This document shows, piece after piece, positions 16,658-48,074 of a stretch of DNA of 64,000 nt. Source of the DNA: Patescibacteria group bacterium. GTDB lineage: Bacteria; Patescibacteriota; Microgenomatia; UBA1400; PJMF01. The DNA is taken from the NCBI GenBank assembly GCA_049322655.1, contig JBMORP010000002.1, positions 107,714 to 171,713 on the forward strand, read 5' to 3'. Below the pieces are notes generated by a model. The model did not search any database and was not told the origin of the DNA. It saw nothing but the letters and a program-made list of their open reading frames with translations. The translations under genes were made by a program, and so were the position numbers. The first letter of the stretch is position 1, and the number at the start of each line of letters is the position of its first letter.

Positions 16658-17464
16658 ATGGCGATGAAAAAGTATCTTCACCTTCTAAAAAACAATAATC
16701 AAGGTCAAGTCGGCTTGATTGTCTTGCTTATTATGGTTGTTATTTTGGCTTTAGGCTTATCCTTAGCAGCCAGAACCTCACAACAAGCAGAAATTGCCAT
16801 TCAACAAGAAGATACCACCAGAGTGTTTAATGCTGCAGAATCTGGAGTAGAGGCGGCTTTAGCTAATATCTTTCAAGCTGAATCTGCTGGCACAATTAAT
16901 GACCTATCAGAAGATATTGAATCTCTGGATCTGTCAGGCAGTGACTCCAATGTTAATTACAATATTACGAAAAGTAATATCCTGGAAACCCACCTTAAAC
17001 AAGGAACTAGTACTGAGTTAAAAGTCCCAGCTGCTGGAAGCATTAGTTTTTATTGGGCAACCGAAGCAGAGTGTTTAGAGACGGCCTCATTACTATTATC
17101 TGTCTATGCTAATAATGGCTCAGATGTTACCGCCAAACACTTTGCAGTCGGAGATTGTAGTGGCGCTAGTACCAGAGGTGATAACTTCATCTCTAATGAT
17201 CCTGGACCAAGTCCTTACAAATATGGTTACACCCTGTTTACCTCTGCTGATGATTTATTTGTTAGAGTTAAACCGGTTTACAATGACACCGATATTAAAA
17301 TTGTTGGCTCACCAGCAGTTAGCCAATTTACCATTAACTCTCAGGCTCAAAATACTTTAGCCAGCCAAGAAACCAGAACTTTTGAAGTAAAAAGAACGCT
17401 TTCTACTGCCCCAGCTTTCATGGAATATGCTTTGGTCAGTGGAAGCTCAATTATTAAGAATTAA
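16658..17464 (+). CDS. PilX N-terminal domain-like pilus assembly protein / minor pilin
   Basis: N-terminus QGQVGLIVLLIMVVILALGLSLAARTSQQAEIAIQQEDTTRVFNAAESGVEAAL matches the PilX_N pattern. Immediately upstream of pilMNO. Confidence 0.45.
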   Translation: MAMKKYLHLLKNNNQGQVGLIVLLIMVVILALGLSLAARTSQQAEIAIQQEDTTRVFNAAESGVEAALANIFQAESAGTINDLSEDIESLDLSGSDSNVNYNITKSNILETHLKQGTSTELKVPAAGSISFYWATEAECLETASLLLSVYANNGSDVTAKHFAVGDCSGASTRGDNFISNDPGPSPYKYGYTLFTSADDLFVRVKPVYNDTDIKIVGSPAVSQFTINSQAQNTLASQETRTFEVKRTLSTAPAFMEYALVSGSSIIKN

Positions 17465-17469
17465 AAAAA

Positions 17470-18477
17470 ATGCCTGCCACTGCCATTGATATCGGTACTT
17501 ATGCCGTTAAAGTCGTTACTGCTGATCCTGGTCCACAGCCAAATATTCACCGGGTAGTAGAAGTCGTTAATCCTTTTGGTGTAGCCATCCCCACTGATGA
17601 TCTCCAAGTTGAACAACTAGGTGAGTTAATTAATAACTTGATTTTTGATAATAAACTTACTCATACAGATTTGAGATTAAGTTTGCCAGAAGCAATGGTT
17701 TCTTCCAAAATCATCTCAATTCCACCATTAACTGACTCAGAACTAGCCTCAGCTATCGGCTGGCAAGCTGAACAACATATTCCTATCCAAAAAGAAGATT
17801 TATCCTTGCAATACAAAGTGCTTTATCGCCCAGAAAAAGGCAACTCCAAGACTCCAATGAGAGTACTATTAATCGGCACTAGGAAATCAATTGTTGATAA
17901 ATATGTTAATATGTTTATCGCCATGGGCATTGAGCCCACAGTGCTAGAAACTCAAGTTCTGTCCATTCTCAGAACTCTAGATATTACTGCCCAGGAACCA
18001 CCCACCATGCTCCTGAATTTAGGAGCAACCAACATGGATGTGGCTGTGGTTTTTCAGGGAGAAATTCAGTTTGTCTTCACTCACACTGGAGTTGGCGCTC
18101 TACTTACCAAAACTCTTCAACAAACCCTTGGTTTAGACTTACAACAGGCAGAACAATACAAGCGTTCTTATGGTCTAGATCCCAACCAATTTGAAGGCAA
18201 AGTTAGAAATGCACTTTTACCAATAATTAATGTTTTAATTAGTGAAATTCAGAAAGCTCAACGCTACTTTACTAGCCAATTTCCACAACATACGCTCTCT
18301 CGAGCAGTACTAACTGGAGGCTCATCACAACTTCCGGGCTTAGTAGAGCACCTCTCAGAAACCCTAGGCTCTGAGATTTTATTCGCCGCTCCGTTTGTTA
18401 CTGCTACCGGAGAAGTTCCAACTGAAAATCAACAAAATTTTTCTGTTTGTACTGGGCTATTAATGAGAGAAGTTTAG
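17470..18477 (+). CDS. pilM: type IV pilus assembly protein PilM (actin-like ATPase fold)
   Basis: AIDIGTYAVKVV N-terminal actin-like fold. About 335 aa. Followed by pilN and pilO. Confidence 0.75.
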   Translation: MPATAIDIGTYAVKVVTADPGPQPNIHRVVEVVNPFGVAIPTDDLQVEQLGELINNLIFDNKLTHTDLRLSLPEAMVSSKIISIPPLTDSELASAIGWQAEQHIPIQKEDLSLQYKVLYRPEKGNSKTPMRVLLIGTRKSIVDKYVNMFIAMGIEPTVLETQVLSILRTLDITAQEPPTMLLNLGATNMDVAVVFQGEIQFVFTHTGVGALLTKTLQQTLGLDLQQAEQYKRSYGLDPNQFEGKVRNALLPIINVLISEIQKAQRYFTSQFPQHTLSRAVLTGGSSQLPGLVEHLSETLGSEILFAAPFVTATGEVPTENQQNFSVCTGLLMREV

Positions 18478-18479
18478 TC

Positions 18480-19055
18480 ATGACTGAAATTAATTTTCTT
18501 AACCAGAGAAGATTATCTCTTGCCAAAGTAGGAGAGAAAGATGCTGTTTATCAAAAATATAGTTTGTGGGCTTTTGGTGGAGCCTTAACTTTATTTTTGA
18601 TTACCACTGGTTTTAATTTTTTCTTTGTCCAAAGACTCAAAGATCTTAATAAACAAGAAGCTACTCTGACTAGCCAAATTTCAGCTGAAGAAGAAACAGA
18701 GCTAACTTTTCTGATGTTTTCTCACAAACTCAAAACCGTAAAAGATATTTATCAAAATAGAAGTAATAAACAACAAGCCATCGATTATTTTTCTAACCTC
18801 TTTGGAAATCAAGTTTTTTTGTCTGGGATGAACTATGGAGATGGAGAAAAGGGCAATGCCTTATCGTTACGGCTTACTAGTGAAAACATTTTTGCCCTAG
18901 AAAAAATCTTGAATACTCTTGATCTAGATAGTGTTAAACAATCATTTTCTACCATTAATCGCAGCGGACTAAGAAGAGAAAACAATGGTACCTATAGCAT
19001 CGATCTGGCTGTGGAGTTACTAAAACAAGGAGACATTAATGCCAGTTCTCAATAA
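18480..19055 (+). CDS. pilN: type IV pilus assembly protein PilN
   Basis: INFLNQRR followed by a single TM helix. Start chosen at ATG 18480, overlapping the pilM stop. Confidence 0.6.
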   Translation: MTEINFLNQRRLSLAKVGEKDAVYQKYSLWAFGGALTLFLITTGFNFFFVQRLKDLNKQEATLTSQISAEEETELTFLMFSHKLKTVKDIYQNRSNKQQAIDYFSNLFGNQVFLSGMNYGDGEKGNALSLRLTSENIFALEKILNTLDLDSVKQSFSTINRSGLRRENNGTYSIDLAVELLKQGDINASSQ

Positions 19056-19872
19056 ACTTGATAGCAACTTCAATCTCTCTTTGCTCTTAAGCACCAGAAT
19101 GAACTTGGTCAAAGCAGTGGCCTTTGGTTTAACTGCTTTTGTGTTATTAATTCTTACTTACTACCAACTAACTGGTATTAGTGAAACCAGAAAAAAAATG
19201 GAAGTTACCCAAAAGAAAACTGACCAGCTAGCAAATAAAATCGCTGAGCTTGAGGCTCTTAAAACTACCCCTGAATATGCTCAAGCTCAAAAAATGAATG
19301 ATATCTTGCCATCTCATAAGCCTCTTTTAGAATTGTTAAATAATCTCAACTCAGTCGCTAGTGAAACCAATGTTTCTATCACTGAGTTTAAGATTAATCC
19401 TGGAGAAATCATTACTGAGGGCGAAGAAGCCCAAAAAGTCTCTGTGAAAAAGAAAAAAGCCGGTGACTATGACCAGCTGAATTTGGACTTAAGTATTGTT
19501 GGTGGCTTAGACCAAGTTAAGGAGTTTATGACCCTAATCGAAAGAGTTTCACCGATTACCACTATTACCAGTTTAACCATTGATCGAAAAGCCACTAATA
19601 TTGGTGATAATCAACAACTTACTAGAGCAGATTTATCCCTGAGTACTTATTATTACACTAAATCAGTCTCGGCTACCTTATCGGCGGCTATCCCTAGTAT
19701 TACTCAAGAAGAAAGAGCTATTTTTCAAGATATCATTGATTTTTCACCTTCACAGATCGAGAACCAAGTTGAAATAATTGGGGGAAATAACACCGATCTA
19801 TTTGGAATCGATGGTCTCAATGTTGGCGATTTGGAACAACAAATAGAAGATGAACTAACTTTTACTGAATAA
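19039..19872 (+). CDS. pilO: type IV pilus assembly protein PilO-like
   Basis: N-terminal TM helix followed by a coiled coil. Third gene of the pilMNO arrangement, overlapping the end of pilN. Confidence 0.55.
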   Translation: MPVLNKLDSNFNLSLLLSTRMNLVKAVAFGLTAFVLLILTYYQLTGISETRKKMEVTQKKTDQLANKIAELEALKTTPEYAQAQKMNDILPSHKPLLELLNNLNSVASETNVSITEFKINPGEIITEGEEAQKVSVKKKKAGDYDQLNLDLSIVGGLDQVKEFMTLIERVSPITTITSLTIDRKATNIGDNQQLTRADLSLSTYYYTKSVSATLSAAIPSITQEERAIFQDIIDFSPSQIENQVEIIGGNNTDLFGIDGLNVGDLEQQIEDELTFTE

Positions 19873-19886
19873 TTTCAGTAAACAAA

Positions 19887-20117
19887 TTATTCAACAATCT
19901 CGACTCTAACAAAAACCCCGTCCCTGGCTGCTTTGACTTGAACAAGTTTTCTGACGGCTTTGATGACTTTACCACCTTTACCAATAATTCGACCCATATC
20001 ATCTGGATGAACTGTCACTAAAATCTTTAAACCTTCGGCCGTTTCTTCTTCAGTTACTTTTAAATCATCTGGATGATCAATCAATCTTACTAACAGATAT
20101 TCAACAAAGTTTTTCAT
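19887..20117 (-). CDS. KH-domain RNA-binding protein (YlqC/KhpA family)
   Basis: 76 aa with GRIIGKGGKVIKAVR, the KH GxxG loop. Lies downstream of rpsP as in many bacteria. Confidence 0.7.
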   Translation of the reverse strand: MKNFVEYLLVRLIDHPDDLKVTEEETAEGLKILVTVHPDDMGRIIGKGGKVIKAVRKLVQVKAARDGVFVRVEIVE

Positions 20118-20143
20118 GATTTCCTTTAACTGAAACTAATAAT

Positions 20144-20554
20144 TTATTCAGTTTTTTCTGCAGAAGTTGGAGCAGCTGGTTGTTCCTCAACAATAGCTGC
20201 TTCTACAGGAGTTTCAACTGCTGAATCTTGAGCAGCTGCATCAATTTGTTTGGCAGCAGCTTCTTGTTTGGCTTTAGCTTTACGAGAAAATTGAGCTTTT
20301 TTGACTGGAAAAGGATTACCAGATTCAAAACGAGCGAATAGGCCAGCTACTGTTTCAGTAGGTTGAGCTCCTTTTTTTAACCAAGCTTTATATTCTTCAA
20401 CATTAAAATCCAAGACTTTTGGATTTTCTGTTGGTACATAACGACCAATTTGAGCTACATAGCTACCATCTCTTTTATCTCTAGCTTCATTAACCACAAT
20501 CCGATAATGAGGATGTTGTCTTTTACCAAAACGAGCTAATTTAATTTTCAACAT
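20144..20554 (-). CDS. rpsP: 30S ribosomal protein S16, with a C-terminal Ala/Glu-rich extension
   Basis: MLKIKLARFGKRQHPHYRIVV. Confidence 0.85.
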   Translation of the reverse strand: MLKIKLARFGKRQHPHYRIVVNEARDKRDGSYVAQIGRYVPTENPKVLDFNVEEYKAWLKKGAQPTETVAGLFARFESGNPFPVKKAQFSRKAKAKQEAAAKQIDAAAQDSAVETPVEAAIVEEQPAAPTSAEKTE

Positions 20555-20737
20555 ATTATTTTTAATTTCTTTTAATTTTTAATAAATACTACTAGCCTCT
20601 ACCTAACTTGAGAACAAAACGAGCACTTGTCCTCAAAGATCATAGGGGAGAATTGTACCCTCTTTAGTCAAAATTCTCAAGAAGGAGTAACAAACTTAAA
20701 ATAAGTCATTTAGTAATCAAATTATTTCAAGTAAATC

Positions 20738-21403
20738 TTAAACGTCAAAACGTTCTAAAGCCTGGCTGGCTGCCTCTTGTTGAGCCAATTGCTTGCTTTT
20801 ACCAGTGCCTTTACCAACTACCTGATTATTAACCTTAACCTCAACGGTGAAGGTCTTGTCATGATCTGGACCTTGTTCAGCAATTACATCATAAACCGGA
20901 GTGGGCAAACCTTTTGCCTGGACAACTTCTTGTAACAAACTCTTACTATCACGGTAAAGTCTTTTTGATTTTATCTCGGCAAACTTGGGGAATAACTGCT
21001 CAGCCAAAAACTGTTTAACAGCTTTAAAACCTTGATCTAAATATAAAGCTCCGATCACAGCTTCAAAAACATCAGCCAATAAACCATCATTTTCCCTGCC
21101 TCCAGTAGCTTCTTCACCTTTACTCATAAACATTTTCTCACCCAGTTTCAACTCCCGAGCAACCTGAGCAAGAGTTGTGGTTTTAACCAAAGAACTTCGA
21201 TAAGAAGTCAGTACGCCCTCTGGTTCATCGGGAAATTGCTCAAACAAGAACTCAGTAGTAACTAATTCCAAGACGGCATCACCCAAAAACTCAAGCCTTT
21301 CATAGGACTCAGTGGCGGTTGTTCCAGAGTTTACTTCATTAAGTGAACTACGATGAGAAAGTGCAGTAATTAATAATTGCTGGTTGTTAAATTCGGGTAA
21401 CAT
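20738..21403 (-). CDS. rnc: ribonuclease III
   Basis: ERLEFLGDAVLELV signature. C-terminal dsRBD. Confidence 0.9.
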   Translation of the reverse strand: MLPEFNNQQLLITALSHRSSLNEVNSGTTATESYERLEFLGDAVLELVTTEFLFEQFPDEPEGVLTSYRSSLVKTTTLAQVARELKLGEKMFMSKGEEATGGRENDGLLADVFEAVIGALYLDQGFKAVKQFLAEQLFPKFAEIKSKRLYRDSKSLLQEVVQAKGLPTPVYDVIAEQGPDHDKTFTVEVKVNNQVVGKGTGKSKQLAQQEAASQALERFDV

Positions 21404-21408
21404 AAAAA

Positions 21409-21672
21409 CTAGCCCAATTCTACTTCTTCCTCTACCAATTTGGCTAACTGTTCAACTGTATCTTCGGATTCCTCTAACTCATCTAGCACGGTCATCATAT
21501 CTAATTCAATCTCAAAGTCTTGATTAATGACAGCTAACAAACGAGGAAAGTCTTCTTCCATATTAATCCCCAAATCAGCCTCTAAATGTGAGCCAGGCAA
21601 AATCTCAGCTGGACTATGACCAGTTGCCAAAGCCAATAATTCTTGCAGTTGATTAAAAATATCTTTATTCAT
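21409..21672 (-). CDS. acyl carrier protein-like, degenerate (the phosphopantetheine-attachment Ser is replaced)
   Basis: Aligns to AcpP helix II ([27 protein letters not shown] vs [25 protein letters not shown]), with DSL changed to NME. Sits in the conserved position before rnc. Confidence 0.5.
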
Positions 21673-22051
21673 TTTTTTCTTCCTCCATCAGGATTTTACC
21701 TAACACCCCATTCACAAATTTGGGCGAACTATCTGAGCCATATTCTTTGGCTAATTCAACCGCTTCGTCAATAAGAACTTTTTTGGGTGTACTTTTGGTT
21801 TGAGATTCAAAAATCACCACCCGCATAATAGCTAAATCAACTTGGTTAATTTCATTTAATGGTCTTTCTGGAGCATACTGAACTACCAGTTTATCTAAAT
21901 CTGGTGATTGGTTAATGATTTGTCTAGCTTCATCGAGATAAGCTAATTGAGTAATATCTTGGTCTGCTTCTCCAGAAAACATCAATGCAAAGACTGTTTG
22001 CATTAATTGAGCTCTTTTTTCATGACGTGGATCAATATTGTGTTCTGACAT
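21665..22051 (-). CDS. nusB: transcription antitermination factor NusB
   Basis: [14 protein letters not shown]...[14 protein letters not shown]...FVNGVLGKI. Confidence 0.7.
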
Positions 22052-22526: not shown

Positions 22527-22555
22527 TTGCAAAAATCGAAATCATTATTTATAAT
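22527..22555 (+). promoter_or_regulatory. sigma70-type promoter TTGCAA-17-TATAAT
   Basis: Near-consensus hexamers with a 17-nt spacer. Predicted TSS about 22562. Confidence 0.45.
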
Positions 22556-22634: not shown

Positions 22635-24530
22635 ATGCCTAAAAAAAACTTTGATAACTCACAATTTTCTCGTAATAAAGATTTTGATAAACGCTGGAGA
22701 CAAGAAGGTCTAGAAAGACTGGATGTTTCTTTTGCTCAAATCCAAAGCTTAGCCACTGCTGGTTGGCAAGAACTCCAGAACCAACTTTGGAAGATAGAAG
22801 CTGTGCTGCAACCAGCAGATATGGAGTTTGCTAATGCGGTTGTGACTGGTTCTATTGGGCAAAATGAATATCAAAAAAGAATGGCTGGCTTTGCCCCAGA
22901 ACGCAAAAATCTCCTTGTTTATTTACTATTAATTCTGTTTACTATGTCATTTTTGATCAGTTGTGCTGCTCCTCCAGACGCAACACCAACCGATGTGATT
23001 GCTCCACCCACTGCTACCGCCTATGTAGAAAAACCACCTGCTGATAACCCCCCAGCTATAGAATCGACTGCTACTGCTTTTGCTGACCTAGATATTGACT
23101 ATGGTAGCTTTACTGGTTTTGAGCCAATCGTTGATCCAGTTCTCGAAGATGCCTGGCAAGAAATCATCGATAGTGAGGTAGCCTCACCACTAGGTATTGA
23201 TGTTATTGATGTTTCTTCAACTAATATTTTAGTCAAAGTTAAACCAGGCAATGGCTATGACAACGATACTTACTTCACTATCTCTAATATTCCTGGCCAT
23301 GAAGGAGAGGTCTTAACTGTTTCTCTGGCCGGTGTTAATCGAGTGGCTGGTGGAACTGCAGTCAGGCTAGCTATCGGCATTAATGGTTTACCGGTTGGTT
23401 TAGATATCGATAACAACGTAGTAGGTTATATTGATGAAACTGGACAGTGGGTAGCTGGCTCACTCGAGCTAGCTCCAAGTTTGCCAGGTACTCCAGCTGA
23501 ACCAGAACCAACCCCTGCAGAAGTTGATTACTTTGACATGACTCCAGAAGAGAGATTGGAGCAATCGCTGGGATTTGTGGAACAAGCTAATGGTTATAGT
23601 GGGGAAGTTAGTTTTGTGGCAGATGACTGGGCAGATAGGGGAACCACTGCTCCATTTTGGTGGGCTCCATCTCTAGGAGAGTGGAAAACCACCTCCGAAT
23701 TTACTACTGGAACTGGTGGTGTTGATGAAAATCTTTTGGACCGAAATGGCGAAACTTTGCCACCAGTAGCAGCAGCTGGTTATGAAAATAATGATGGCAG
23801 CTTAGTACTAATTCACCCAGAAACAGGAGCTGAAATCGTTTTTCCAGCAACGGTGACTGTCCCAGGTATTGGAGTGATATCAATCAGAGATTTAATGAAT
23901 ATGAGTTTGGATGATCTAAATAATCTTGCTGTTAATACTAGTGAAACCATCATTGGCAACCCAGAAGAAAGAATTTATCAAATGCAAGAAGTGATGAGAG
24001 TTAAAGGAACATCATATCCTGGATTTGCAATTGGATTTGATAACCTATTTCCAATTACTAGTGCAGCTGGCGATGAAATTCCAGAAAGAAAAGGCTCAAT
24101 CACTGAGGTCAGAAATCATGTAATTGCTGTTCCAATTTTTAGTCCAGAAACTGGTGACTTCATGCTCTGGGCAATTATTCAGAAAGGTTCTTTAGCCTCA
24201 AATGCTGAATTCAGAACCAATGGTGATCAATTCAGTTATAGTACAGTGCCATTCACAGATGGTCTTTTTGGACAAAACGGCAATAATTTTGGTATCTTTA
24301 TGGAATATTCTTCGCCAGAGCAACCTAGTTTGGCATATGCCAGAGGTGGATTTGAACAAGTTGTTGGACCAACTAATGATCCTGCAGCAGTAGATACTGG
24401 AATGGGTGATATCTATACAATTCAACGACTTCTTGAAGCCAGAACTGACGAAGAAGTTTTATCAATTCTTGCTGAACAAGGCATTATCTGGTCAATCCCT
24501 TCAGCCACTGTATTTGAAGTTAGTCAGTAA
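22635..24530 (+). CDS. hypothetical secreted protein/lipoprotein. An internal ATG at 22881 would give a lipobox (LISC) signal peptide.
   Basis: Hydrophobic segment LLVYLLLILFTMSFLISCAAPP about 85 aa into the ORF. No recognisable domain. First gene of the plus-strand operon that ends in a pilin gene. Confidence 0.5.
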   Translation: MPKKNFDNSQFSRNKDFDKRWRQEGLERLDVSFAQIQSLATAGWQELQNQLWKIEAVLQPADMEFANAVVTGSIGQNEYQKRMAGFAPERKNLLVYLLLILFTMSFLISCAAPPDATPTDVIAPPTATAYVEKPPADNPPAIESTATAFADLDIDYGSFTGFEPIVDPVLEDAWQEIIDSEVASPLGIDVIDVSSTNILVKVKPGNGYDNDTYFTISNIPGHEGEVLTVSLAGVNRVAGGTAVRLAIGINGLPVGLDIDNNVVGYIDETGQWVAGSLELAPSLPGTPAEPEPTPAEVDYFDMTPEERLEQSLGFVEQANGYSGEVSFVADDWADRGTTAPFWWAPSLGEWKTTSEFTTGTGGVDENLLDRNGETLPPVAAAGYENNDGSLVLIHPETGAEIVFPATVTVPGIGVISIRDLMNMSLDDLNNLAVNTSETIIGNPEERIYQMQEVMRVKGTSYPGFAIGFDNLFPITSAAGDEIPERKGSITEVRNHVIAVPIFSPETGDFMLWAIIQKGSLASNAEFRTNGDQFSYSTVPFTDGLFGQNGNNFGIFMEYSSPEQPSLAYARGGFEQVVGPTNDPAAVDTGMGDIYTIQRLLEARTDEEVLSILAEQGIIWSIPSATVFEVSQ

Positions 24531-24566
24531 TCATTCTCTTGCAAGCATATCTAATTTATTGCTAGA

Positions 24567-25244
24567 ATGAGTTTGGTGTCTGATTATAAACCTGAATATC
24601 AAATGAACTTAGGCAACTCTTTGAATAATAAAAAGGAGATTGTTTTTTTTGCCGTTTCTCTAATTTTTTTTATTGCAATTTTAGGTGTTTATATTTTCTT
24701 CTTCCTAAATAGAAACTCACATCAGTTAAAATTTGTAGATGAGCCAAGACCAGATACAGAATTCTATAAAATAGATCCAGAAACAAAAGAAATTACTAAA
24801 GCAGAAGAAGAACCCATTGAAGTAGTCATTACTGACTTAGAATTAGATGAAGATATCGGTGGTTTTAGACCAGAAGGAATAATTCTCAAAGGATATTTTG
24901 ATAGTTTAGATCAAAATTCTGAGGTTCTAAAGTTTAAAAACAGATTCTCAACGATAAGCGACAACCTTCAGTTACTAAGCCTAAATATTAGTAAGATTAA
25001 AGACTTTTATTGTTGGCCAGCTAAAATGGCTAACAGTGATGTGGATATCAGAAATGTAGAAATTGGTTTGTCCTCGCCAAGCTCTGTTGTTTATCATCCA
25101 GAGGAAAAATTGATTAATTTTGATGAAATAAATAAACTTGATATGAAAGATGCTTTTTTGATTATGCAGTTAGATAGCGAGTATGATTTTGACAAAACTA
25201 ATTTTGTCAAAAAGCTCATAGTAATTGACTGTAAAAATCTATGA
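24567..25244 (+). CDS. hypothetical single-pass membrane protein
   Basis: N-terminal TM helix (IVFFAVSLIFFIAILGVYIFFFL). The stop overlaps the next start (ATGA). Confidence 0.45.
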   Translation: MSLVSDYKPEYQMNLGNSLNNKKEIVFFAVSLIFFIAILGVYIFFFLNRNSHQLKFVDEPRPDTEFYKIDPETKEITKAEEEPIEVVITDLELDEDIGGFRPEGIILKGYFDSLDQNSEVLKFKNRFSTISDNLQLLSLNISKIKDFYCWPAKMANSDVDIRNVEIGLSSPSSVVYHPEEKLINFDEINKLDMKDAFLIMQLDSEYDFDKTNFVKKLIVIDCKNL

Positions 25245-27118
25245 AAAAATATTTAAAGATTCTGATTAGTTTCATAATAACAACTACTTTGTTATGGTCA
25301 GCTTTTTTTTTGTCACAACATTTACTAAAAACAATACCAATAGCCAATGCTAATGAGTGCTCTAGCGCTAATTGTGGTGGAGGAAAATGCCCAGGAGGTT
25401 GTCCTGGGTTAGTCCAAAATATTCCATATGGTGGCTGTTTTAAAACCGATAATGCCGGAAGATTAACTTGCTACGATACTTCTAGTCCATCCGTACCCAC
25501 TGGGTCTTGTGATTCTAATGAAAGCGATACAGTTCCTTGTCCAGAAGATTGTCCTGACCCATGTGCTTGTGATCCTTTAGTTGATTCTTACTGCACTTGC
25601 GACCCAGATCATGACAATGCTGGTTGCAATCTAGTGAATGGCTTTAGCGGAGTGTGTTTTGATGATGGTAGTAATGGTGGCTGTATTAATGGACAATGGT
25701 GTACCACTGTTAATGATGGCTCAGAATGTTATGAAACTTATGTGGATGTTTACTGCTGTGACGCGCCCGCACCAACCTCACCGCCAGCTGATCCCAACCC
25801 AACGTCGCCACCACCTCCAGGAGCCACTACTGCTCCTACTGCCACCCCCACCCCAATTAGACAGTTCCAAGGTAATTTCTATGAAGATGCGAGTGCTACT
25901 GTCAGTGGGCTAGGAGGTACTGATAATCTCTGTACTGGCTCAACGGCCAATCCAGTTTTTATCACTACCGATGCACCTGGTTCTACGGTGAGAGCAACTA
26001 GAACAGGAGAAACAGCCAATGGCACTTTGATTGCTGAAAGCTATGTTACCTACGTTAGCACGACTAATTCTGACTACACGGTAGCTTTACAACTCCCATT
26101 CCCACCTCCCGATCCTAATAATGCCTGGCAATGTGCCTGTAACTCTGACCCAGGAGATCCTTATCGCTGTTTATACACCAATCAACAACCTTCTAACCTA
26201 GTTGATGTTAACTTTTTCCTAAAAAGAGCCAATGTCGCTGAAACAGCCTGGTTCCAAACTCTAGGTGGTAGCTCTTGGGCAGCTAACAGCATTGAATCGA
26301 TTATTCCTGCTTCAACTTGTGCACCACCTAGCTGTACTCCAGCCTTGATCGCTAGTGATCCCAATGGCACCGCTGATAGTGCCGGTTTCCCTCTTACTCA
26401 AAATGGTTCGATCATTACTAGTGTGACTGGCGGAACTTATATCCATGAAACTGATTCTAGAACTACGGCTGCTCAAGGCCAGGCTACCGGCGTAACTGTT
26501 CCCACAGAAAACTATGACTACTTTTATGACAAGCTAGATGACCAAGTCCAAGTACTATCAAGTTCTGACAAACCAATTGTCGGCACAGAATTAGCAGTTT
26601 TTAAATATACTGGTAACTTGACTATCGATCAAACCAGTCCTTGGAATTTGGCTAACACTGAAAAAATCGTTGTTTTTGTCGATGGTGATTTAACCATTGA
26701 TGACACGGTGGCTGGTGAAAACCGCTTAATTACTGTTGCCAAAGGAGGAAATGCTTTCTTGATGTTTGTGGCTAGTGGTGATATTACCGTCACGGCTAAT
26801 GTTGGTTACAGTGATATCTTTACTGACCCAACTCAAGCCAACATTAGTAACATTGAAGGGGTCTTTGTCGCCAATGGAGTTCTGACTATCGATGGTCAAG
26901 CCAGCACAACTGACAGAAAATTCATTGGGGCTGGCACATTTGTAGGGTGGGGTGGAGTTAACTTGAATCGTGATTTTGATGATGGGACTAATCCCGCCCT
27001 CAATGACAATGCTGCTACCGAGACATTTATCTTCAGACCAGATCTCTTGGTTAATGCTCCCAAGCCAATTAAATCAGCGCAAATGACCTGGAGAGAAGTA
27101 GAACCTAGCTTCCAGTAA
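25241..27118 (+). CDS. large secreted protein: signal peptide, then a Cys-rich region (more than 25 Cys), a Pro/Thr linker and a conserved ~420-aa domain shared with the next gene
   Basis: N-terminal TM/signal peptide. CSSANCGGGKCPGGCPG...CCDAP, then PAPTSPPADPNPTSPPPPGATTAPTATPTP. C-terminal domain motifs PFPPPDPNNAWQCACN, FIGAGTFVGWGGVNL, FIFRPDLLVN. Confidence 0.6.
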   Translation: MKKYLKILISFIITTTLLWSAFFLSQHLLKTIPIANANECSSANCGGGKCPGGCPGLVQNIPYGGCFKTDNAGRLTCYDTSSPSVPTGSCDSNESDTVPCPEDCPDPCACDPLVDSYCTCDPDHDNAGCNLVNGFSGVCFDDGSNGGCINGQWCTTVNDGSECYETYVDVYCCDAPAPTSPPADPNPTSPPPPGATTAPTATPTPIRQFQGNFYEDASATVSGLGGTDNLCTGSTANPVFITTDAPGSTVRATRTGETANGTLIAESYVTYVSTTNSDYTVALQLPFPPPDPNNAWQCACNSDPGDPYRCLYTNQQPSNLVDVNFFLKRANVAETAWFQTLGGSSWAANSIESIIPASTCAPPSCTPALIASDPNGTADSAGFPLTQNGSIITSVTGGTYIHETDSRTTAAQGQATGVTVPTENYDYFYDKLDDQVQVLSSSDKPIVGTELAVFKYTGNLTIDQTSPWNLANTEKIVVFVDGDLTIDDTVAGENRLITVAKGGNAFLMFVASGDITVTANVGYSDIFTDPTQANISNIEGVFVANGVLTIDGQASTTDRKFIGAGTFVGWGGVNLNRDFDDGTNPALNDNAATETFIFRPDLLVNAPKPIKSAQMTWREVEPSFQ

Positions 27119-27124
27119 AAATAT

Positions 27125-28453
27125 ATGCTGAAAATCATCTTGTTACTGAGTTTTTTCTTCAGCTCATTTTCCGTAGTCAAAGCCGGAACTTTTGCCGGTC
27201 AACTGTACGAAGATCCTAATGCCATGCCAATGGGGTTGGGTGGCTCAGATAATAAATGTGATGGCAGCTTGGCAACTGAAGTCTCTGGGGCTGGTTTTAA
27301 AGTTAAATCTACCAGATCAGGTGAAACCGATCATGGTTTCTTCATGGGTGCTACCTACAATATTACCACTGGCACCTCTAATCCTGATTATACCGTTATT
27401 CTAGACTTACCTTATCCACCACCGGACCCAGCCAACGCCTGGCAATGTGCCTGTAACGCCAATCCCTTGGACCCCTACCAATGTGTTTATACTAACCAAG
27501 ATCCCACCACTTTGGAGTCGCTTAATTTTTTTATCAAAAGAGCCAATGCCAATAACAATGCTTGGTGGCAAGTCTTGGGTGGCAATATTTTTTCTAAACA
27601 AAACATCCAGAGTTATATTCCAAACTCTGATCTACCAGGCTATTGTAATAATACTCCTGGCTGTACTCCAGCCCTCATTGATATGAATCCTAGCTTTACT
27701 TTGGAAAGTCCTGGTTTTGCTTTTACTCTAGATGGTTCAATCATGACCTACCAAAATCCAGCGTCAGTTTTCTTACATACCAACGACAGTAGAAGCAGTG
27801 CCTTACAAGCCACCGCTCTTTCAGCCGATATTCCAGAAGAAAATTATGCCTTTTTCTTTAAAAAAGTTGCTGATAAGGTTGTTCCTTTACCCAGCTCACA
27901 AAAACCAGTACCTAGCCAAAATCCCGGTATCTATCTTCATGAAGGTGATCTAACCATTAATGAGCTAAACTCCTGGCAAGTAACTAACACTGAACAAATC
28001 ATTGTTTTTATTAATGGCAGTTTATTTATTGATGATACTAGCGCTAGTGAACAAAAAATCATTACGGTTGAAGCTGGTGGATCTGGTTTTTTGGCTTTTT
28101 TTGTCAAAAACAACATTGTGATTTCACCTAACGTTGGTTATTCAGATATTTACACTAATCCTCACGATCCAAATGTGGCTTTAGTAGAAGGCGTCTATCT
28201 GGCAGATAAAATCATTAGTGTCGAAGGAGTAACAGAAGTTCAAGATAAAAAATTTATTGGTGCTGGTTCTTTTGTGGGGTGGGGTGGCATTAAGTTGAGC
28301 CGAAGTTTTGCTGTGCCAGGGAATAACTCACTTAATAACCAAAGTCCTGCAGAAGTGTTTATTTTCCGCCCAGATTTTTTGGTTAACACTCCCAAAGAAA
28401 TTAAATCCGCTCACTTTTACCTTAGAGAACTTCAACCAAAAACTATACAATGA
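27125..28453 (+). CDS. secreted paralog of the preceding gene (shared ~420-aa domain only)
   Basis: Signal peptide MLKIILLLSFFFSSFSVVKA. Collinear with the 25241 domain: PYPPPDPANAWQCACN, FIGAGSFVGWGGIKL, FIFRPDFLVN. Confidence 0.6.
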   Translation: MLKIILLLSFFFSSFSVVKAGTFAGQLYEDPNAMPMGLGGSDNKCDGSLATEVSGAGFKVKSTRSGETDHGFFMGATYNITTGTSNPDYTVILDLPYPPPDPANAWQCACNANPLDPYQCVYTNQDPTTLESLNFFIKRANANNNAWWQVLGGNIFSKQNIQSYIPNSDLPGYCNNTPGCTPALIDMNPSFTLESPGFAFTLDGSIMTYQNPASVFLHTNDSRSSALQATALSADIPEENYAFFFKKVADKVVPLPSSQKPVPSQNPGIYLHEGDLTINELNSWQVTNTEQIIVFINGSLFIDDTSASEQKIITVEAGGSGFLAFFVKNNIVISPNVGYSDIYTNPHDPNVALVEGVYLADKIISVEGVTEVQDKKFIGAGSFVGWGGIKLSRSFAVPGNNSLNNQSPAEVFIFRPDFLVNTPKEIKSAHFYLRELQPKTIQ

Positions 28454-29016
28454 AAACTGTGCTAAAGAATCTGTTCAAACAAACAGCGGGCTTCACTCTT
28501 TTAGAATTACTGATTGTGGCTGGCCTATCAGTGTTGGTCATGCTGACTGTCACCACTATGTTTCTAACTTTTATTATTACTTCTAAAAAATCAAACCTGA
28601 AACAAAAAGTTCATAATGAAGGTCAAGTTGCGTTGAGTAAAATCGAGTTTATTTTGCGAAACTCACAGAGATTAGTGGCAGGCTTAGATGGAGCAACTAT
28701 CTGCAATAATGACCCAGATACACCCATGAGTAATATCGCCGTTCAAGGCTTAGATGGTTATGTCACCACTCTGCAAAGCTATCCTCTTGAGGATGGTCAA
28801 TTAGCCTCATACTCAACGGCTATTAATGACTACTATTATCTAACCTCAGAAGAAACAACTTTATCTAATCTCAGGTTCATTTGTTTAACAGGTGGAGAAG
28901 AGAATACTTACTACGTAAGCACCTCCTTTGACCTTAAAATCGGCTCTGGATCAACCAATGATAAAGAGACAGCTGTAGAAAGCTTCCAAACCGGAATCAC
29001 TCTAAGAAACAACTAA
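28450..29016 (+). CDS. type IV prepilin-like protein (minor pilin/pseudopilin)
   Basis: Class III signal ...TAG|FTLLELLIV with Glu at +5. Start overlaps the upstream stop (ATGA). Confidence 0.7.
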   Translation: MKTVLKNLFKQTAGFTLLELLIVAGLSVLVMLTVTTMFLTFIITSKKSNLKQKVHNEGQVALSKIEFILRNSQRLVAGLDGATICNNDPDTPMSNIAVQGLDGYVTTLQSYPLEDGQLASYSTAINDYYYLTSEETTLSNLRFICLTGGEENTYYVSTSFDLKIGSGSTNDKETAVESFQTGITLRNN

Positions 29017-29498
29017 TCCCAACGACGAAAAACTTGAATTATTTCGACATCTTTGACGTTATCATTAGTGGTCCAAGACATGGTCATCACCACTCTCACT
29101 TGAGGATTATTTGGGTCTGTCTCATCCACCGTCACGGTTGCCTCCCTGATAAACTCTTGACCAGAGATCACAATCGTATCATCGCTTCCACAAGCACCAC
29201 TAGTAAACGCTCCAAATGGAGCCGGTAAATCCTTAAAACAATAAACAGGATTACCCCGGAAAGTATTAATAAATGCTTCCCAACCTAATAAAGTTCTTTC
29301 TCGACGAAAAATCTCCATCGCTTCTTGAGCTCGCTTGACTGCCTGAGATCGGTATTCAGATTCTGCATTGGTTTTCAGTGACAGAGTTAACCCAGCCACA
29401 ATAGTAGTTAAAACCAAAGCCATCACCCCAGTTGCGACAATAATTTCAATTAAGCTTGAGCCTTTTTGACTAAAAAACTTTTTTAGCCTCATAGCCAT
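29013..29498 (-). CDS. type IV prepilin-like minor pilin
   Basis: KG|SSLIEIIVATGVMALVL, a prepilin-type N-terminus with Glu at +5. Confidence 0.6.
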   Translation of the reverse strand: MAMRLKKFFSQKGSSLIEIIVATGVMALVLTTIVAGLTLSLKTNAESEYRSQAVKRAQEAMEIFRRERTLLGWEAFINTFRGNPVYCFKDLPAPFGAFTSGACGSDDTIVISGQEFIREATVTVDETDPNNPQVRVVMTMSWTTNDNVKDVEIIQVFRRWD

Positions 29499-30004
29499 CC
29501 TCCAGGACTAAACCTACCTTCTCGATAAAGAGTAAAAGCATAACTGTGACTGTCATTAGTCACTGTAATTTCCTGACTGGCCACCCCTCCGGGTAAATCA
29601 ACTCCAGCATGAAGCACCCTAAAGGTGACATCTAGGTTGGGAGAAATAACCACTCCCTCAGCCAGCTGGTACTCGGTGGCACTGTTGGCTGTTCCTGTAA
29701 CACAGTCAGCTTGTAAGAAAAGAGTGGTCACATTACCACTTTGAGCTGAAGTCACTTTATAACCATTCAACTGTTCACAACCATTTAAGTTGCCAGCATT
29801 AGCCTCTGATGAAGCTCGTTGAAAAATGGTTTTGAGTTCATCAACGGCATCATTCACGTTCCTTTGGTCTAAATAATCAAGGAAAAAAGCAATTGCTCCA
29901 CTCAGCAACACTAAAGTAATTGCCACTGTGACCAACAATTCAATCAGGGTAAAGCCAAGCTGTCGATAGAGGTGGCCAAAATTATTATTATATGTTTTTA
30001 ACAC
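29489..30004 (-). CDS. type IV prepilin-like minor pilin
   Basis: QLG|FTLIELLVTVAITLVLL. Confidence 0.7.
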   Translation of the reverse strand: MLKTYNNNFGHLYRQLGFTLIELLVTVAITLVLLSGAIAFFLDYLDQRNVNDAVDELKTIFQRASSEANAGNLNGCEQLNGYKVTSAQSGNVTTLFLQADCVTGTANSATEYQLAEGVVISPNLDVTFRVLHAGVDLPGGVASQEITVTNDSHSYAFTLYREGRFSPGGWL

Positions 30005-30010
30005 TGTAGT

Positions 30011-30415
30011 TTAAGGATTTTGTACCGAATAAATAGTATCATCTGGTTCTAAAGTAGCTTCCAAAGTAAAACCAGCAGCCTCTGTAGAGTTACAGGTTCC
30101 AGATGGAGTATAGGTGTAAAGGGGGTTGGTCTCTGAGCCCAGTGGATCAAAAGGAATATCAGTAGTATAGGCACTAATAGTTGACAACATTTCTAAATAA
30201 CTGGCCGAAGACGGATAACAGCCGTTATCACTTCGATACAAAACCAGTTGTTGTCTAACAGATTGTAAGTCAGTTTTTCTTTTGGCATTGCGACTACTCT
30301 GGGTGGCTTGACGATAACTAATCAAGGCAATCGTCGTCAAAATAATCATAATGGTTGCCACTACTAACAACTCAATCATCGAAAAACCAGCAGTTAAAAT
30401 GTTTTTTTTCTTCAT
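30011..30415 (-). CDS. type IV pilin/pseudopilin
   Basis: MKKKNILTAG|FSMIELLVV. Confidence 0.75.
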   Translation of the reverse strand: MKKKNILTAGFSMIELLVVATIMIILTTIALISYRQATQSSRNAKRKTDLQSVRQQLVLYRSDNGCYPSSASYLEMLSTISAYTTDIPFDPLGSETNPLYTYTPSGTCNSTEAAGFTLEATLEPDDTIYSVQNP

Positions 30416-30846
30416 TGTAAGTTAGTTAAACAATAATAAGTTCCTGCTGATGTAAAGTTACAGGTACTAGCAGTCGGAATATCAGCATTTCCAGAACTAC
30501 TTTCCATGTTGGCACAAATACAATAGCTATCAGCAGCACACCCCGTTGAAGTATTGTAAACATAATCGCCAGAGTTCTTGGGATCTGCAGGCAAACCTCC
30601 AGGCATTAAAGCCCCAGAACCATCATCATAGGTTGCCATCGTACTACAATCAGCATAACTATTATTGGCAGCCTTATACTGTTCAAAAGCATCTTGCATG
30701 GCTTTAACATCACCTCTTCTTCTTGAATCACGACCTTTTTTCTGGACCGTAGTAAAAGCCACTGTTCCCAGAGCAATTAGAATCCCAATGATTGAGATAA
30801 CTACCAATAACTCTAATAAACTAAAACCGGCTTGTTTTTTTTTCAT
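30412..30846 (-). CDS. type IV pilin/pseudopilin
   Basis: MKKKQAG|FSLLELLVVISIIGILIAL, with C-terminal Cys residues. Confidence 0.75.
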   Translation of the reverse strand: MKKKQAGFSLLELLVVISIIGILIALGTVAFTTVQKKGRDSRRRGDVKAMQDAFEQYKAANNSYADCSTMATYDDGSGALMPGGLPADPKNSGDYVYNTSTGCAADSYCICANMESSSGNADIPTASTCNFTSAGTYYCLTNLQ

Positions 30847-30850: not shown

Positions 30851-31885
30851 TTAATTTCTGACTTGGACCTGTATTTTTGCTACTCCATCCAAACTACTCA
30901 TTACGCCAAATTTAGTAGTTGCTTGAATGGTGACGTTATAAACACAGATTGCTTTTCTTTCACAAGTATAAGTATGCCCCGTTCTCCCATGCAAGTCCAG
31001 TAATTTCTCCGAAGTCCCATCACCAAAAGAAATGATAATTTCTGCCACTTCATCGGTAGTAGTTTCTTGTTGAGTATATTTATTTAAAATATTTAATAAT
31101 TTTTCATCCCACCTGAGTTGGTCTGCCTCTGCTTCAAAAAGATTTTCTCTAGCAAAAACATCACCTTTCACATCACTAATCGTATAAATAAACTCAATAA
31201 AATCACCAGATTGTAAACTTACCACTTTGGAATCATCTCCCGTTGGTTCAGAATTGAAGGTTAAAACCACTGGCTTTTCTACACAACTGGCGTAACAAGA
31301 CTTGGGACAATCCAGGGCGTTGGGTTGATAAAAATCTTGACCAGCTTGATAATCATCACCGCAACAAACATAACCATAACCACTACAAACAGTAGCCGGT
31401 CCTTCATTAAGAATGACATCTAACTCATTTATTTTGGAAGAGGCCACAAATAATACATTTTCTTCTTCATACACCACTCCAGCTCGGCCAAAAATACCCA
31501 CCTCAACACCATGTCCACTTTGACCTTGAACCAAACCCGATTGACCAGCGGCTCTTCTAACCAGAGGGGGCAAGGTTTTATTCTTAATGACTTTTCTAAC
31601 TGATTCTGATGCTTTACAAACGCTCTCCAGCACATACTCACTATCAGAGATAAATCTAATTTGATTTCTGACCATAGAGCCCTCATCAACAAAAGAGCCT
31701 CCACTATATTCAAGACACTCTTTGAAAAACTCTCCACCAGTAGAGGATTGAGCCAAAAACTTCATATCTCCCTTGAGTTGGCTCAAAGCAGCTGATAAAA
31801 GAATTTCTCTACTAATCAAACCACCCACCAAAGCAGTTAAAAACAAGATAACCATTGAAGTAAAAAAAATCTTTAAAACTCTCAT
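30851..31885 (-). CDS. hypothetical membrane-anchored protein with a Cys-rich module, inside the pilus operon
   Basis: N-terminal TM helix. CSGYGYVCCGDDYQAGQDFYQPNALDCPKSCYASC. Overlaps pilD by 4 nt. Confidence 0.4.
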   Translation of the reverse strand: MRVLKIFFTSMVILFLTALVGGLISREILLSAALSQLKGDMKFLAQSSTGGEFFKECLEYSGGSFVDEGSMVRNQIRFISDSEYVLESVCKASESVRKVIKNKTLPPLVRRAAGQSGLVQGQSGHGVEVGIFGRAGVVYEEENVLFVASSKINELDVILNEGPATVCSGYGYVCCGDDYQAGQDFYQPNALDCPKSCYASCVEKPVVLTFNSEPTGDDSKVVSLQSGDFIEFIYTISDVKGDVFARENLFEAEADQLRWDEKLLNILNKYTQQETTTDEVAEIIISFGDGTSEKLLDLHGRTGHTYTCERKAICVYNVTIQATTKFGVMSSLDGVAKIQVQVRN

Positions 31886-32739
31886 AAACCGGCACCTAAT
31901 ATTAGTTTGACATATTCATCCCAAATTTCATATCCCCAGACCAAACTCAAGCCTGCGGCCAACAATAAAAATGGACCAAAAGGCAAAGTTTGACCAAACT
32001 TTCTTTTCTTTAATAAAACCAAAATAATACCAACTATCGCACCAATAACAAATGAAAAAAAAGTAGTAACCACAATTCTTTGCCAAGAACCTAGTAACAA
32101 GCCCAAAGGAACAGCTAATTTAACATCACCAAAGCCAAAACCTTTTCCTTTAGTTACCAGCCACAAACTAAAAAAGAAGCCAGTTAAACAAACTGTGCCA
32201 ATCACAGTTCTAACAAAGTCTAACCACTGCATCTCTCCTGTAATAAGTAAAATGACTCGATATAGCACCACGGCAAAAAGTAACAATAAAACCGACCAAT
32301 TAGGAATAATTTGGTATTTTAGGTCACTAATTAAAATAGCTACAAAAATCGTCAAAACCAACAACCAAAACAACGGCTGAATATAGAGTAGAGGAGCAGC
32401 AGTTAACTTAAAAAAGAGAAAACCCATAGCATACCACCACAAAAATAAGCTACCGGTGAGTAACTCTATCAAAGGATGAATAATATCTATTCTTTTTTTG
32501 CAAGCAGCACAACGACCGCCTAAAAATAAATAAGAAAAAACCGGAATGTTTTCATACCAACGAATTTTATGGCGACAATGTTCACAAACTGATCTAGCTT
32601 TAACCCAATCTTGCTCTCTGATGGAGCGATAAATTAACACATTAAGAAAACTCCCAATCGCCGAGCCAAGAAAAAAAATTAAAAAACCTAAAGCCAGCCA
32701 AAATAAATTCATGTTTTTCAGTATACAACCTAAGACCAA
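31882..32739 (-). CDS. pilD: prepilin peptidase (A24 family)
   Basis: Zn-finger CEHCRHKI...CAACKKRI. Polytopic membrane protein. GFGDVKL catalytic region. Confidence 0.85.
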   Translation of the reverse strand: MVLGCILKNMNLFWLALGFLIFFLGSAIGSFLNVLIYRSIREQDWVKARSVCEHCRHKIRWYENIPVFSYLFLGGRCAACKKRIDIIHPLIELLTGSLFLWWYAMGFLFFKLTAAPLLYIQPLFWLLVLTIFVAILISDLKYQIIPNWSVLLLLFAVVLYRVILLITGEMQWLDFVRTVIGTVCLTGFFFSLWLVTKGKGFGFGDVKLAVPLGLLLGSWQRIVVTTFFSFVIGAIVGIILVLLKKRKFGQTLPFGPFLLLAAGLSLVWGYEIWDEYVKLILGAGL

Positions 32740-32784: not shown

Positions 32785-33417
32785 TTACGGCACACAAACA
32801 CAGTTACCAGCAGCACCACACTGAGCAGTGTTACCAATGGCATCAGACGCTGGATAATCAGCTGGATAGTTATCCAAGGTATCATCTCCGTCTGGATCAA
32901 GTCTGGTATCAACCTCTTGAACAAAAGCATTTGATTTGGGAGCAAAACAAGCATAAGTACTACTACCTTGAGAACCACTATTGTAAAGGTACAGATAGTT
33001 ATAAGTTGATTGAGAGACACGCTCAATAAAACTTTGCTTTAACTCATCAGAACCACTACAACCAGCAGTTGAAGCTGTTCCAAGTTTTTCAGCGACTGTA
33101 CAAGTACCACCACTATCAGTAAGGGTAGCATCTTCAAAACGCACCCAAGCCAAAGCTACATTACCTGTATCAGAGGCTCCTGTTTGCCATGGGTAGTAAC
33201 CATTGAAAGCGTAGTAACGATCAATTGCACTGATCAATTGTTCAGCATCAGATCGACTACCAGTATCACGGCCTCTATTGATCTGTTCAATTGGGTTAAT
33301 TGCAGCTAAAACCGCCACCGCCAAAATTCCTAAAATTCCAATCACGATTAACAACTCAATCATGGTAAAACCAGCTTGTTGTTTCATCTGATTGAAGAGC
33401 GAAAATATTTTTTTCAT
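32785..33417 (-). CDS. pilA: type IV major pilin (PilA-like). Start taken at the ATG preceded by AAGGAA.
   Basis: MKKIFSLFNQMKQQAG|FTMIELLIVIGILGILAVAVLAAI. C-terminal Cys pair CGAAGNCVCVP. Shine-Dalgarno-like GTAAGGAAT 4 nt upstream of ATG 33417. Confidence 0.75.
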   Translation of the reverse strand: MKKIFSLFNQMKQQAGFTMIELLIVIGILGILAVAVLAAINPIEQINRGRDTGSRSDAEQLISAIDRYYAFNGYYPWQTGASDTGNVALAWVRFEDATLTDSGGTCTVAEKLGTASTAGCSGSDELKQSFIERVSQSTYNYLYLYNSGSQGSSTYACFAPKSNAFVQEVDTRLDPDGDDTLDNYPADYPASDAIGNTAQCGAAGNCVCVP

Positions 33418-33506
33418 ATTCCTTACATCCCTTCGTGTTTTTACACTGACCTCCACTATAAACTATTTCTTGAGTGGAGCACAAGAGCCTCCTCTATAAT
33501 TTACTA

Positions 33507-48070: not shown

Positions 48071-48074
48071 ACAA

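Follow-up and report, generated by a model that had tools for sequence, protein, structure and literature searches.

Secreted β-solenoid proteins encoded with a minor pilin in a Patescibacteria genome: a candidate tip plug and adhesin of the type IV pilus

Organisation of the locus

The stretch analysed here is a 64,000-nt window of a Patescibacteria group genome (GenBank assembly GCA_049322655.1, contig JBMORP010000002.1, positions 107,714 to 171,713); the element in question is an operon of five genes, g1 to g5, which encodes two secreted paralogs (g3 and g4) and a minor pilin (g5) and lies beside type IV pilus (T4P) genes (Table 1). Coordinates throughout are positions in the window. Family loci in other genomes are denoted by an L number, of which L005 is the closest relative and the reference for comparisons of identity and of dN/dS (the ratio of nonsynonymous to synonymous substitution rates). 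An earlier interpretation made from the DNA without database searches, hereafter the sequence-only reading, had proposed that these genes encode a pilus-presented adhesin comparable to PilY1/PilC or ComZ. The five packed, co-directional open reading frames (ORFs) that it described are present, all on the plus strand and spanning 22635–29016, with successive gaps of 36, −4, 6 and −4 nt; its two ATGA overlaps (g2 stop/g3 start at 25241; g4 stop/g5 start at 28450) can be read directly.

Upstream of g1, the best promoter-like site does no more than match the consensus, and such sites are no more numerous in the region than expected from shuffled sequence. At the other end of the operon, g5 and the gene for a 161-aa minor pilin on the minus strand converge, with their 3′ ends overlapping by 4 nt (29013–29016). 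No terminator-like hairpin is present between these two genes, so that the ends of their transcripts would be mutually antisense.

Table 1. Features of the operon and of the pilus genes of the window
Feature	Position (nt)	Strand	Length or residues	Remarks
PilX_N/GspK-like pilin without Glu5	16658-17464	+		PilX_N E = 6.5e-4, below gathering cutoff
PilM	17470-18477	+		PilM_2 1.2e-34
PilN-like	18447-19055	+		
PilO	19039-19872	+		PilO 8.9e-8
Best promoter-like site upstream of g1	22527..22555	+		TTGCAA-17-TATAAT, 10/12 consensus matches
g1	22635-24530	+	631 aa	lipoprotein-like
Hypervariable cassette	~23675..25775	+	2.1 kb	sliding-window nucleotide alignment against L005
g2	24567-25244	+	225 aa	bitopic membrane protein
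g3	25241-27118	+	625 aa	secreted paralog 1
g3 Sec signal		+	aa 1-37	cleavage ANA/N
g3 Cys-rich head	25352-25759	+	aa 38-173	20 Cys (aa 40-173)
g3 Pro/Thr linker	25760-25861	+	aa 174-207	DAPAPTSPPADPNPTSPPPPGATTAPTATPTP
g3 shared domain	25862-27115	+	aa 208-625	paralogous to g4
g4	27125-28453	+	442 aa	secreted paralog 2, headless
g4 Sec signal		+	aa 1-20	cleavage VKA/G
g4 predicted β-sandwich and Cys-containing middle region	27185-27844	+	aa 21-240	
g4 predicted ice-binding-protein-like triangular β-solenoid and flanking helix	27845-28399	+	aa 241-425	
g4 conserved basic C-terminal tail	28400-28450	+	aa 426-442	
g5	28450-29016	+	188 aa	prepilin, GspJ/PilW class
Four convergent minor/pseudopilin-like genes	29013..30846	-		each syntenic in 41-43/81 loci
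p344	30851..31885	-	344 aa	N-terminal transmembrane/signal segment, 10 Cys, non-pilin
PilD prepilin peptidase	31882-32739	-		Pfam A24_N_bact + Peptidase_A24
PilA, probable major pilin	32785-33456	-		Pfam N_methyl
PilC	33507-34703	-		Pfam T2SSF
PilT	34713-35789	-		Pfam T2SSE
PilB	35795-37567	-		Pfam MshEN + T2SSE

Secreted paralogs with a predicted ice-binding-protein-like solenoid

g3 and g4 are collinear over a shared domain (46% identity over 421 aa, E = 2e-128), as had been claimed for a region of ~420 aa, and the motifs PPPDPxNAWQCACN..DPYxCxYTNQ, FIGAGxFVGWGG and FIFRPDxLVN, noticed beforehand, recur in both the g3/g4 alignment and the family consensus; g3 scores 743 bits against the family hidden Markov model (HMM). 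The N-terminal region of g3 is indeed Cys-rich and joined to the shared domain by a real Pro/Thr linker, although the head holds fewer Cys than the 'about 25' previously given, the protein as a whole having 26 of which six lie in the shared domain. Sec-type signal peptides are found in g3, g4 and 132 of the 193 family members, the other 61 of which look like fragments; a class III prepilin signal occurs in none of the 193.

An AlphaFold2 model of g4, calculated with 44 homologs, has a mean pLDDT (predicted local distance difference test) of 82.6, with values above 90 over residues 240–425. In this model a helix (residues 241–251) precedes the solenoid, whilst the C-terminal tail (residues 426–442) is of low confidence, or disordered in isolation; neither an α1 helix nor a pilin sheet is present. 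The conserved C-terminal region of g3 and g4 is thereby modelled as a β-sandwich followed by a triangular β-solenoid of the type found in ice-binding proteins, and the two are Sec-secreted, non-pilin proteins. All ectodomains are acidic (isoelectric points of 4.0–4.9), and the solenoid has 13 Lys and Arg compared with 19 Asp and Glu. A deposited sequence identical to g4 is annotated as hypothetical and comes from a Patescibacteria-group metagenome-assembled genome (MAG).

Scans of g1–g4 against Pfam, NCBIfam, PHROGs and PADLOC returned nothing significant. Searches of PDB sequences with the shared domain, either as a single protein or as a profile, gave chance-level matches only (phosphoglycerate kinase and YerB), and none of these searches revealed homology of the domain to a housekeeping enzyme. 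The assertion that it belongs to no known family is right at the level of sequence but not at that of the predicted fold, which is a known one. DUF7305 was considered as a home for the family and rejected (sub-threshold matches only, in 5 of 44 members, best E = 0.0065, and no literature); a phage origin was likewise rejected, with no relatives on viral contigs and no phage or defence signal.

A large family with a constant C-terminal domain and variable heads

A word-indexed search returned only 50 relatives, all from Patescibacteria, whereas an exhaustive profile search yielded 2,918 clusters at 50% identity (E ≤ 1e-3), with 739 at E ≤ 1e-30. The conserved domain always lies at the C-terminal end, with a median of 4 residues after it. 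Among the complete members, 110 of 132 carry a head of 60 aa or more; the median head length is 258 aa and the median Cys content 8.5%, as against 1.5% in the shared domain. By similarity the heads form 30 clusters and the shared C-terminal domain a single one. Judged by these statistics, g3 has the typical form of the family and g4 the minimal form.

We retrieved 77 loci from species-representative genomes, mostly of Patescibacteria (Pacebacteria, Woese-, Collier- and Beckwithbacteria, and the Microgenomates group), with a few family matches in Chloroflexi and in contigs labelled TM6, Verrucomicrobia and Proteobacteria; no Saccharibacteria genome is among the 77. A complete 853-kb genome labelled candidate division TM6 (CP011212.1; L052) contains the full module (g2-like protein, solenoid protein, g5, minor pilins and p344), and dozens of contigs labelled Pseudomonadales ('uncultured Pseudomonadales') or Gammaproteobacteria show the same synteny, of the type seen in the candidate phyla radiation (CPR). 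The taxonomic labels of these TM6, Pseudomonadales and Gammaproteobacteria records look unreliable, as do several of the MAG labels among the few matches outside Patescibacteria.

The L004 homolog (9149–11530; 30% identity) probably starts upstream of the called gene, which would give a protein of 793 aa with a different Cys-rich head; a thrombospondin-type-1-like motif in this head (WSACSASCGGGIQTRSC) did not match Pfam TSP_1 and was discounted. One Aggregatilineales contig (CBDCER010000003.1; L020, L025 and L028) carries three unlinked solenoid paralogs, each of ~775–806 aa; in place of a g2-like protein, each has before it a ~300-aa protein whose N-terminus is twin-arginine-like (SRRDFLKLSGFSLGMLGLG), and no pilin genes lie within 6 kb of these three.

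Linkage of the solenoid gene to pilin genes

The product of g5 has the class III signal QTAG/FTLLELLIVAG, with Glu5, followed by a hydrophobic helix, in keeping with its earlier description as a prepilin-like protein with a G/FTLLE signal. Its structure model comprises a helix (residues 17–70) and a GspJ-like globular fold, and we assign g5 to the GspJ/PilW class of minor pilins. The score against Pfam N_methyl is 18.3 bits (gathering cutoff 21.2), several orthologs carry PF07963 in precomputed annotation, and the HpsC pseudopilin model is matched weakly. The best match to g5 is TTHA1219, which we do not claim to be the PilA3 gene beside comZ.

Since a strict prepilin regular expression undercounted linkage (27/74), it was replaced by tblastn searches with g5. 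In these, 39 of 89 copies of the solenoid gene are directly followed by a g5 ortholog and 9 more are so by way of a tandem paralog (48/89 in total), with the g5 start mostly within ±40 nt of the solenoid stop; T4P genes are found within 6 kb at 50 of 81 loci. In ~40 loci the solenoid gene is found together with the g5 ortholog and with the convergent block formed by the minor pilins, p344 and PilD. Linkage to pilin genes in related genomes, on which the sequence-only reading had made its proposal depend, persists down to ~30% identity.

The linked copies, including g3 and g4, form one large clade in a rough neighbour-joining tree. This clade has few exceptions; most are truncated contigs, and one, from Anaerolineales (L039), is truly unlinked. 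The g3/g4 duplication does not extend beyond the closest relatives. At interrupted loci (L004 and L052) g5 remains beside the solenoid gene and not with the other pilins. The gene order at L034 is head-plus-solenoid, PilX-like pilin and g5-like pilin, and that at L061 is solenoid, PilX-like pilin and PilM-N-O.

The g1 and g2 proteins and a hypervariable cassette

From its hydropathy, g1 comprises a conserved N-terminal extension of ~85–90 aa, a hydrophobic segment (aa 90–116) and an acidic ectodomain of ~520 aa. The hydrophobic segment closes on a lipobox (L107-I-S-C110), of which L107 and C110 are invariant across six homologs; the designation 'lipoprotein-like' is sound in this respect, but the lipobox sits behind a long conserved extension, being preceded in the ORF as called by ~106 residues that include an internal Met83. 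The extension is 80–88% identical in amino acid sequence to that of L005 where dS is ~1, whilst the homolog P0197 carries a short classical lipoprotein signal. Given the position of the lipobox after the extension, either the g1 precursor would be atypical or translation would start internally at M83. The protein is a near-orphan, with only 6 homologs among 5.8 billion proteins. Its first ~400 aa are 74–94% identical to L005 and its last ~230 aa ~56%, the C-terminal third being hypervariable.

The g2 protein has a single transmembrane segment (aa ~21–51) and an acidic ectodomain of ~170 aa; its identity to the L005 ortholog is 59%, and dS between the two is saturated. In 18 other loci an iterated HMM found a g2-like ORF that immediately precedes the solenoid gene and lies on its strand. 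g2 and the solenoid protein are a conserved pair in their own right.

Nucleotide identity to L005 is 60–75% over one contiguous stretch, the hypervariable cassette, versus 83–99% on both flanks. This stretch contains the C-terminal third of g1, g2, and the signal peptide and Cys-rich head of g3. The g3 head is 50–72% identical to L005 (50–56% over the first ~100 aa of the protein, which cover the signal peptide and the start of the head), whereas the g3 shared domain is 88–100% identical, g4 and g5 ~94%, and the pilins and p344 91–99%. As whole-gene dN/dS is below 0.2, the pattern looks more like allele replacement than pervasive positive selection. A cassette that spans the g3 head, g2 and the g1 C-terminus is as would be expected of a host-recognition surface.

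Type IV pilus genes of the window

The pilus genes on which the operon was said to converge are confirmed as four minor pilins, p344, PilD, PilA, PilC, PilT and PilB. The four minor pilins are of 161 aa (GspI/PilV/ComGE-like; also XpsI-like), 171 aa (GspH-like), 134 aa and 144 aa (GspG-like). Between them and PilD lies p344, which is syntenic in 42/81 loci, has no family match in Pfam, NCBIfam, PHROGs or PADLOC, and is the most conserved gene of the locus relative to L005 (99.1% amino acid identity, dN/dS 0.019); its distant ortholog in L004 gives a weak match to PKD_4. We consider p344 probably to be a conserved, uncharacterised component of this CPR pilus system.

On the upstream side, 16658–22051 holds a cluster of PilX-like, pilM, pilN and pilO genes and a minus-strand housekeeping block that separates this cluster from g1–g5. 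The block contains S16, a gap where relatives encode a KH-domain protein, RNase III, an 87-aa ORF and NusB; the arrangement of PilX-pilMNO cluster, housekeeping block and operon is the same in L001 and L003.

Elsewhere in the window, a stretch of ~1.85 kb (46225–48074) has the lowest GC content (0.285) and no ORF longer than 62 aa. It is flanked by a gene for a membrane protein and by a minus-strand gene for a putative XerC/D-like tyrosine recombinase (45274–46224; assigned from sequence only), which adjoins a tRNA (44959–45032). The stretch contains neither strong repeats nor an Rfam match at E ≤ 0.1, and could be the remnant of an integrated element or an undescribed RNA.

Comparison with known pilus-tip and solenoid proteins

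PilY1 has been proposed to prime pilus assembly, to plug the tip and to act as an adhesin, with its conserved C-terminal domain pilus-proximal and its variable N-terminus at the extreme tip (PMC7541494). Like PilY1/PilC of Pseudomonas, Neisseria and Myxococcus, g3 and g4 are encoded with core minor pilins, and the family shares with PilY1 a type I signal peptide, a variable N-terminus and a conserved C-terminal domain. The conserved domain of g3/g4, however, is predicted to be a β-sandwich with a β-solenoid rather than a β-propeller, and there is no match to PF05567; the heads are Cys-rich modules instead of vWA domains, g2 is there as a dedicated bitopic partner, and the cell in question is a monoderm-like CPR bacterium that has no secretin.

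The triangular β-solenoid predicted for g3 and g4 is instead shared with ComZ of Thermus thermophilus (PDB 6qvi), a DNA-binding protein for which a location at the pilus tip has been argued, and whose gene likewise neighbours those of GspI/J-like minor pilins. The solenoid of ComZ interrupts a GspK-like pilin fold, into which it is inserted between the last two strands, and the protein has an N-terminal hydrophobic helix; g3 and g4, by contrast, carry a Sec signal and lack a pilin fold, and a separate gene encodes the GspK-like pilin. ComZ also has no Cys-rich variable head and no detectable sequence similarity to g3/g4. Cyanobacterial minor pilins of the PilX/HpsA type likewise carry a bulky ice-binding-protein-like β-solenoid, occur with the core minor-pilin set, and have been proposed to replace PilY1 as tip plug and adhesin in lineages without PilY1 (bioRxiv 10.64898/2026.02.12.705559). 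In these the solenoid is within the pilin polypeptide, whilst here a secreted protein of its own carries it; phylum and head domains are different as well. In L034 and L061, where the PilX-like gene abuts the solenoid gene, two modules fused in ComZ and in cyanobacterial PilX thus exist as adjacent, separate genes.

Ice-binding proteins of the DUF3494 type (3wp9, 6bg8 and 4nu2) have in common with the g4 model a right-handed triangular β-helix with a helix alongside. g3 and g4 differ from them in their extra N-terminal domains, conserved C-terminal tail and context, which is pilus-related and not one of cold adaptation; neither they nor any of the 44 members match the Pfam model PF11999 at E ≤ 1. 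The structural match to the tapirins of Caldicellulosiruptor is much weaker than that to ice-binding proteins or ComZ, and the polarity of tapirins is reversed (the C-terminal β-helix binds cellulose, with the N-terminus the presumed point of attachment to the cell); the NCBIfam tapirin model NF051896 is unmatched by g3 and g4. Finally, PilX1 and PilX2 of Nanosynbacter lyticus TM7x resemble g3/g4 in being large accessory-domain proteins of T4P loci in CPR bacteria, in having no PilD-type signal and in having been proposed as host-binding tip adhesins (PMC11623550), but they are pilin-like lollipops with a C-terminal β-jelly-roll or a 7-bladed propeller.

Proposed role and alternatives

We favour the reading, to which we give about even credence, that the operon is an accessory module of the T4P of a Microgenomates-type Patescibacteria bacterium, in which g3 and g4 act as PilY1-like, non-pilin tip plug and adhesin, as a 'split ComZ/PilX'. 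After Sec export, g3 and g4 would dock by way of their conserved C-terminal domain, perhaps with a contribution from the basic tail (aa 426–442), onto a membrane-embedded priming complex formed by g5 with the 161-aa GspI-like, 171-aa GspH-like and PilX_N/GspK-like pilins. The docked proteins would then be carried out to the pilus tip, with the solenoid as plug or cap and the disulfide-rich, fast-evolving head of g3 binding a host-cell ligand; T4P are known to mediate host binding in cultivated CPR bacteria (PMC11623550). The headless g4 may be a plug-only or priming form, or an alternative tip, and g2 may serve to tether the secreted solenoid protein, or to load it, at the membrane of a cell without an outer membrane. 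g1 is presumably a variable surface lipoprotein, the role of which is uncertain.

The pilus-presented adhesin, PilY1/PilC- or ComZ-like, put forward by the sequence-only reading is thus supported, in that the shared domain is without enzyme homology, signal peptides are present and linkage to pilins is conserved. Several points nevertheless weigh against presentation at a pilus tip. Whereas the fold, the make-up of the family, the pilin class of g5 and the linkage of the genes are shown, docking, the contact between g3/g4 and pilins, the tip location, the ligand and the role of g2 are all steps that we infer. A g5 ortholog is not directly downstream in 41/89 copies, no T4P gene lies within 6 kb at 31/81 loci (some on short contigs), and ~40% of family copies are not pilin-linked. 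None of the 193 members is fused to a pilin N-terminus. The tree that unites the linked copies was not bootstrapped, and PDB sequence and profile searches gave no sequence-level signal to ComZ, the likeness being in fold only. The g2-like partner is also found upstream at the pilin-unlinked L039 (on an Anaerolineales chromosome), L043 and L048, so that the pair of g2 and solenoid protein can function without an adjacent pilin gene.

The retention of this partner, the number of unlinked copies and the absence of a pilin segment would each be accounted for if g3 and g4 formed a pilus-independent surface adhesin complex held by g2 and/or g1, co-located and co-regulated with T4P genes only since retraction and close-range adhesins act sequentially in host attachment. 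Stand-alone proteins of the DUF3494 fold and tapirins are indeed surface proteins and not pilins, and the model for Saccharibacteria has separate close-range adhesins that act after T4P contact (PMC11623550). We nonetheless judge this explanation, a serious rival, to be unlikely, for it leaves unexplained why a GspJ-class pilin in particular should have its translation coupled to that of g4 and remain beside the solenoid gene at broken loci, why the solenoid gene abuts a GspK-like pilin gene in L034 and L061, and why the same rare fold is found inside the tip pilins of two other phyla. That fold, which is also that of DNA-binding ComZ, and a linkage to GspI/J-like minor pilins resembling that of the Thermus comZ locus could also point to a DNA receptor at the tip of a competence pilus, with DNA uptake as a source of the nucleotides that CPR bacteria need. 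T4P and competence genes are widespread in CPR bacteria. A DNA receptor is, however, decidedly improbable given the acidity of the ectodomains and the solenoid, the hypervariable Cys-rich heads, which suit a variable ligand better than DNA, and a lack of sequence similarity to ComZ such that its DNA-binding lysines cannot be mapped.

That g3 and g4 are non-adhesive, either true ice-binding/antifreeze proteins or secreted β-helix enzymes degrading polysaccharide or cell wall, is very improbable: they match neither the DUF3494 Pfam model nor any enzyme family, the family spans many habitats and lineages with conserved pilin linkage, and variable heads on a conserved C-terminal part are adhesin-like. 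We know of no catalytic members of the ice-binding-protein fold. It is barely plausible that g3 and g4 are cargo of a pseudopilus like the one in type II secretion systems (T2SS), pushed through the cell wall by a minor-pilin piston and not retained on the pilus. CPR bacteria are without an outer membrane, the layer that a T2SS crosses, and this proposal leaves the g2 partner unexplained. The minor pilins do resemble T2SS pseudopilins, and PilY1 can be viewed as an analog of T2SS substrates (PMC7541494), but the locus encodes the retraction ATPase PilT and a distinct major pilin, as is typical of true T4P.

Building on a tip location for g3 and g4, we also entertain a more far-reaching proposal, which we regard as possible but doubtful. 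The unannotated family of ~2,900 clusters could be the CPR/Microgenomates counterpart of PilY1, a plug that docks in trans on GspJ/GspK-like pilins, perhaps with its tail as a donated strand mimicking the last strand of ComZ after the solenoid. Interchangeable disulfide-rich heads would then determine host specificity, g2 would be a loading factor, and swapping of the 2.1-kb cassette by recombination would change host range.

Significance for Patescibacteria

A solenoid at the T4P tip and the PilY1 design are already known; what is new is the split form, in which a solenoid protein that is Sec-secreted and not a pilin goes with variable, Cys-rich heads and has a membrane partner dedicated to it. 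We thereby define a large family, concentrated in uncultured CPR lineages, for which neither Pfam nor NCBIfam has a model at present. Little is known of the ways in which ultrasmall CPR/Patescibacteria locate their hosts and bind to them, and candidates for tip adhesins have so far come only from cultivated Saccharibacteria and have other folds. The module described here is a concrete and widespread candidate for Microgenomates-type lineages, which are without cultured models. The fold predicted for its conserved domain, to which we ascribe a docking role, is associated with the pilus tip in both Thermus and cyanobacteria, and host specificity could be encoded by the module's hypervariable, Cys-rich head. 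This suggests that a β-solenoid tip plug may be an ancient modular solution, either fused to a pilin or supplied in trans, alongside or instead of PilY1.

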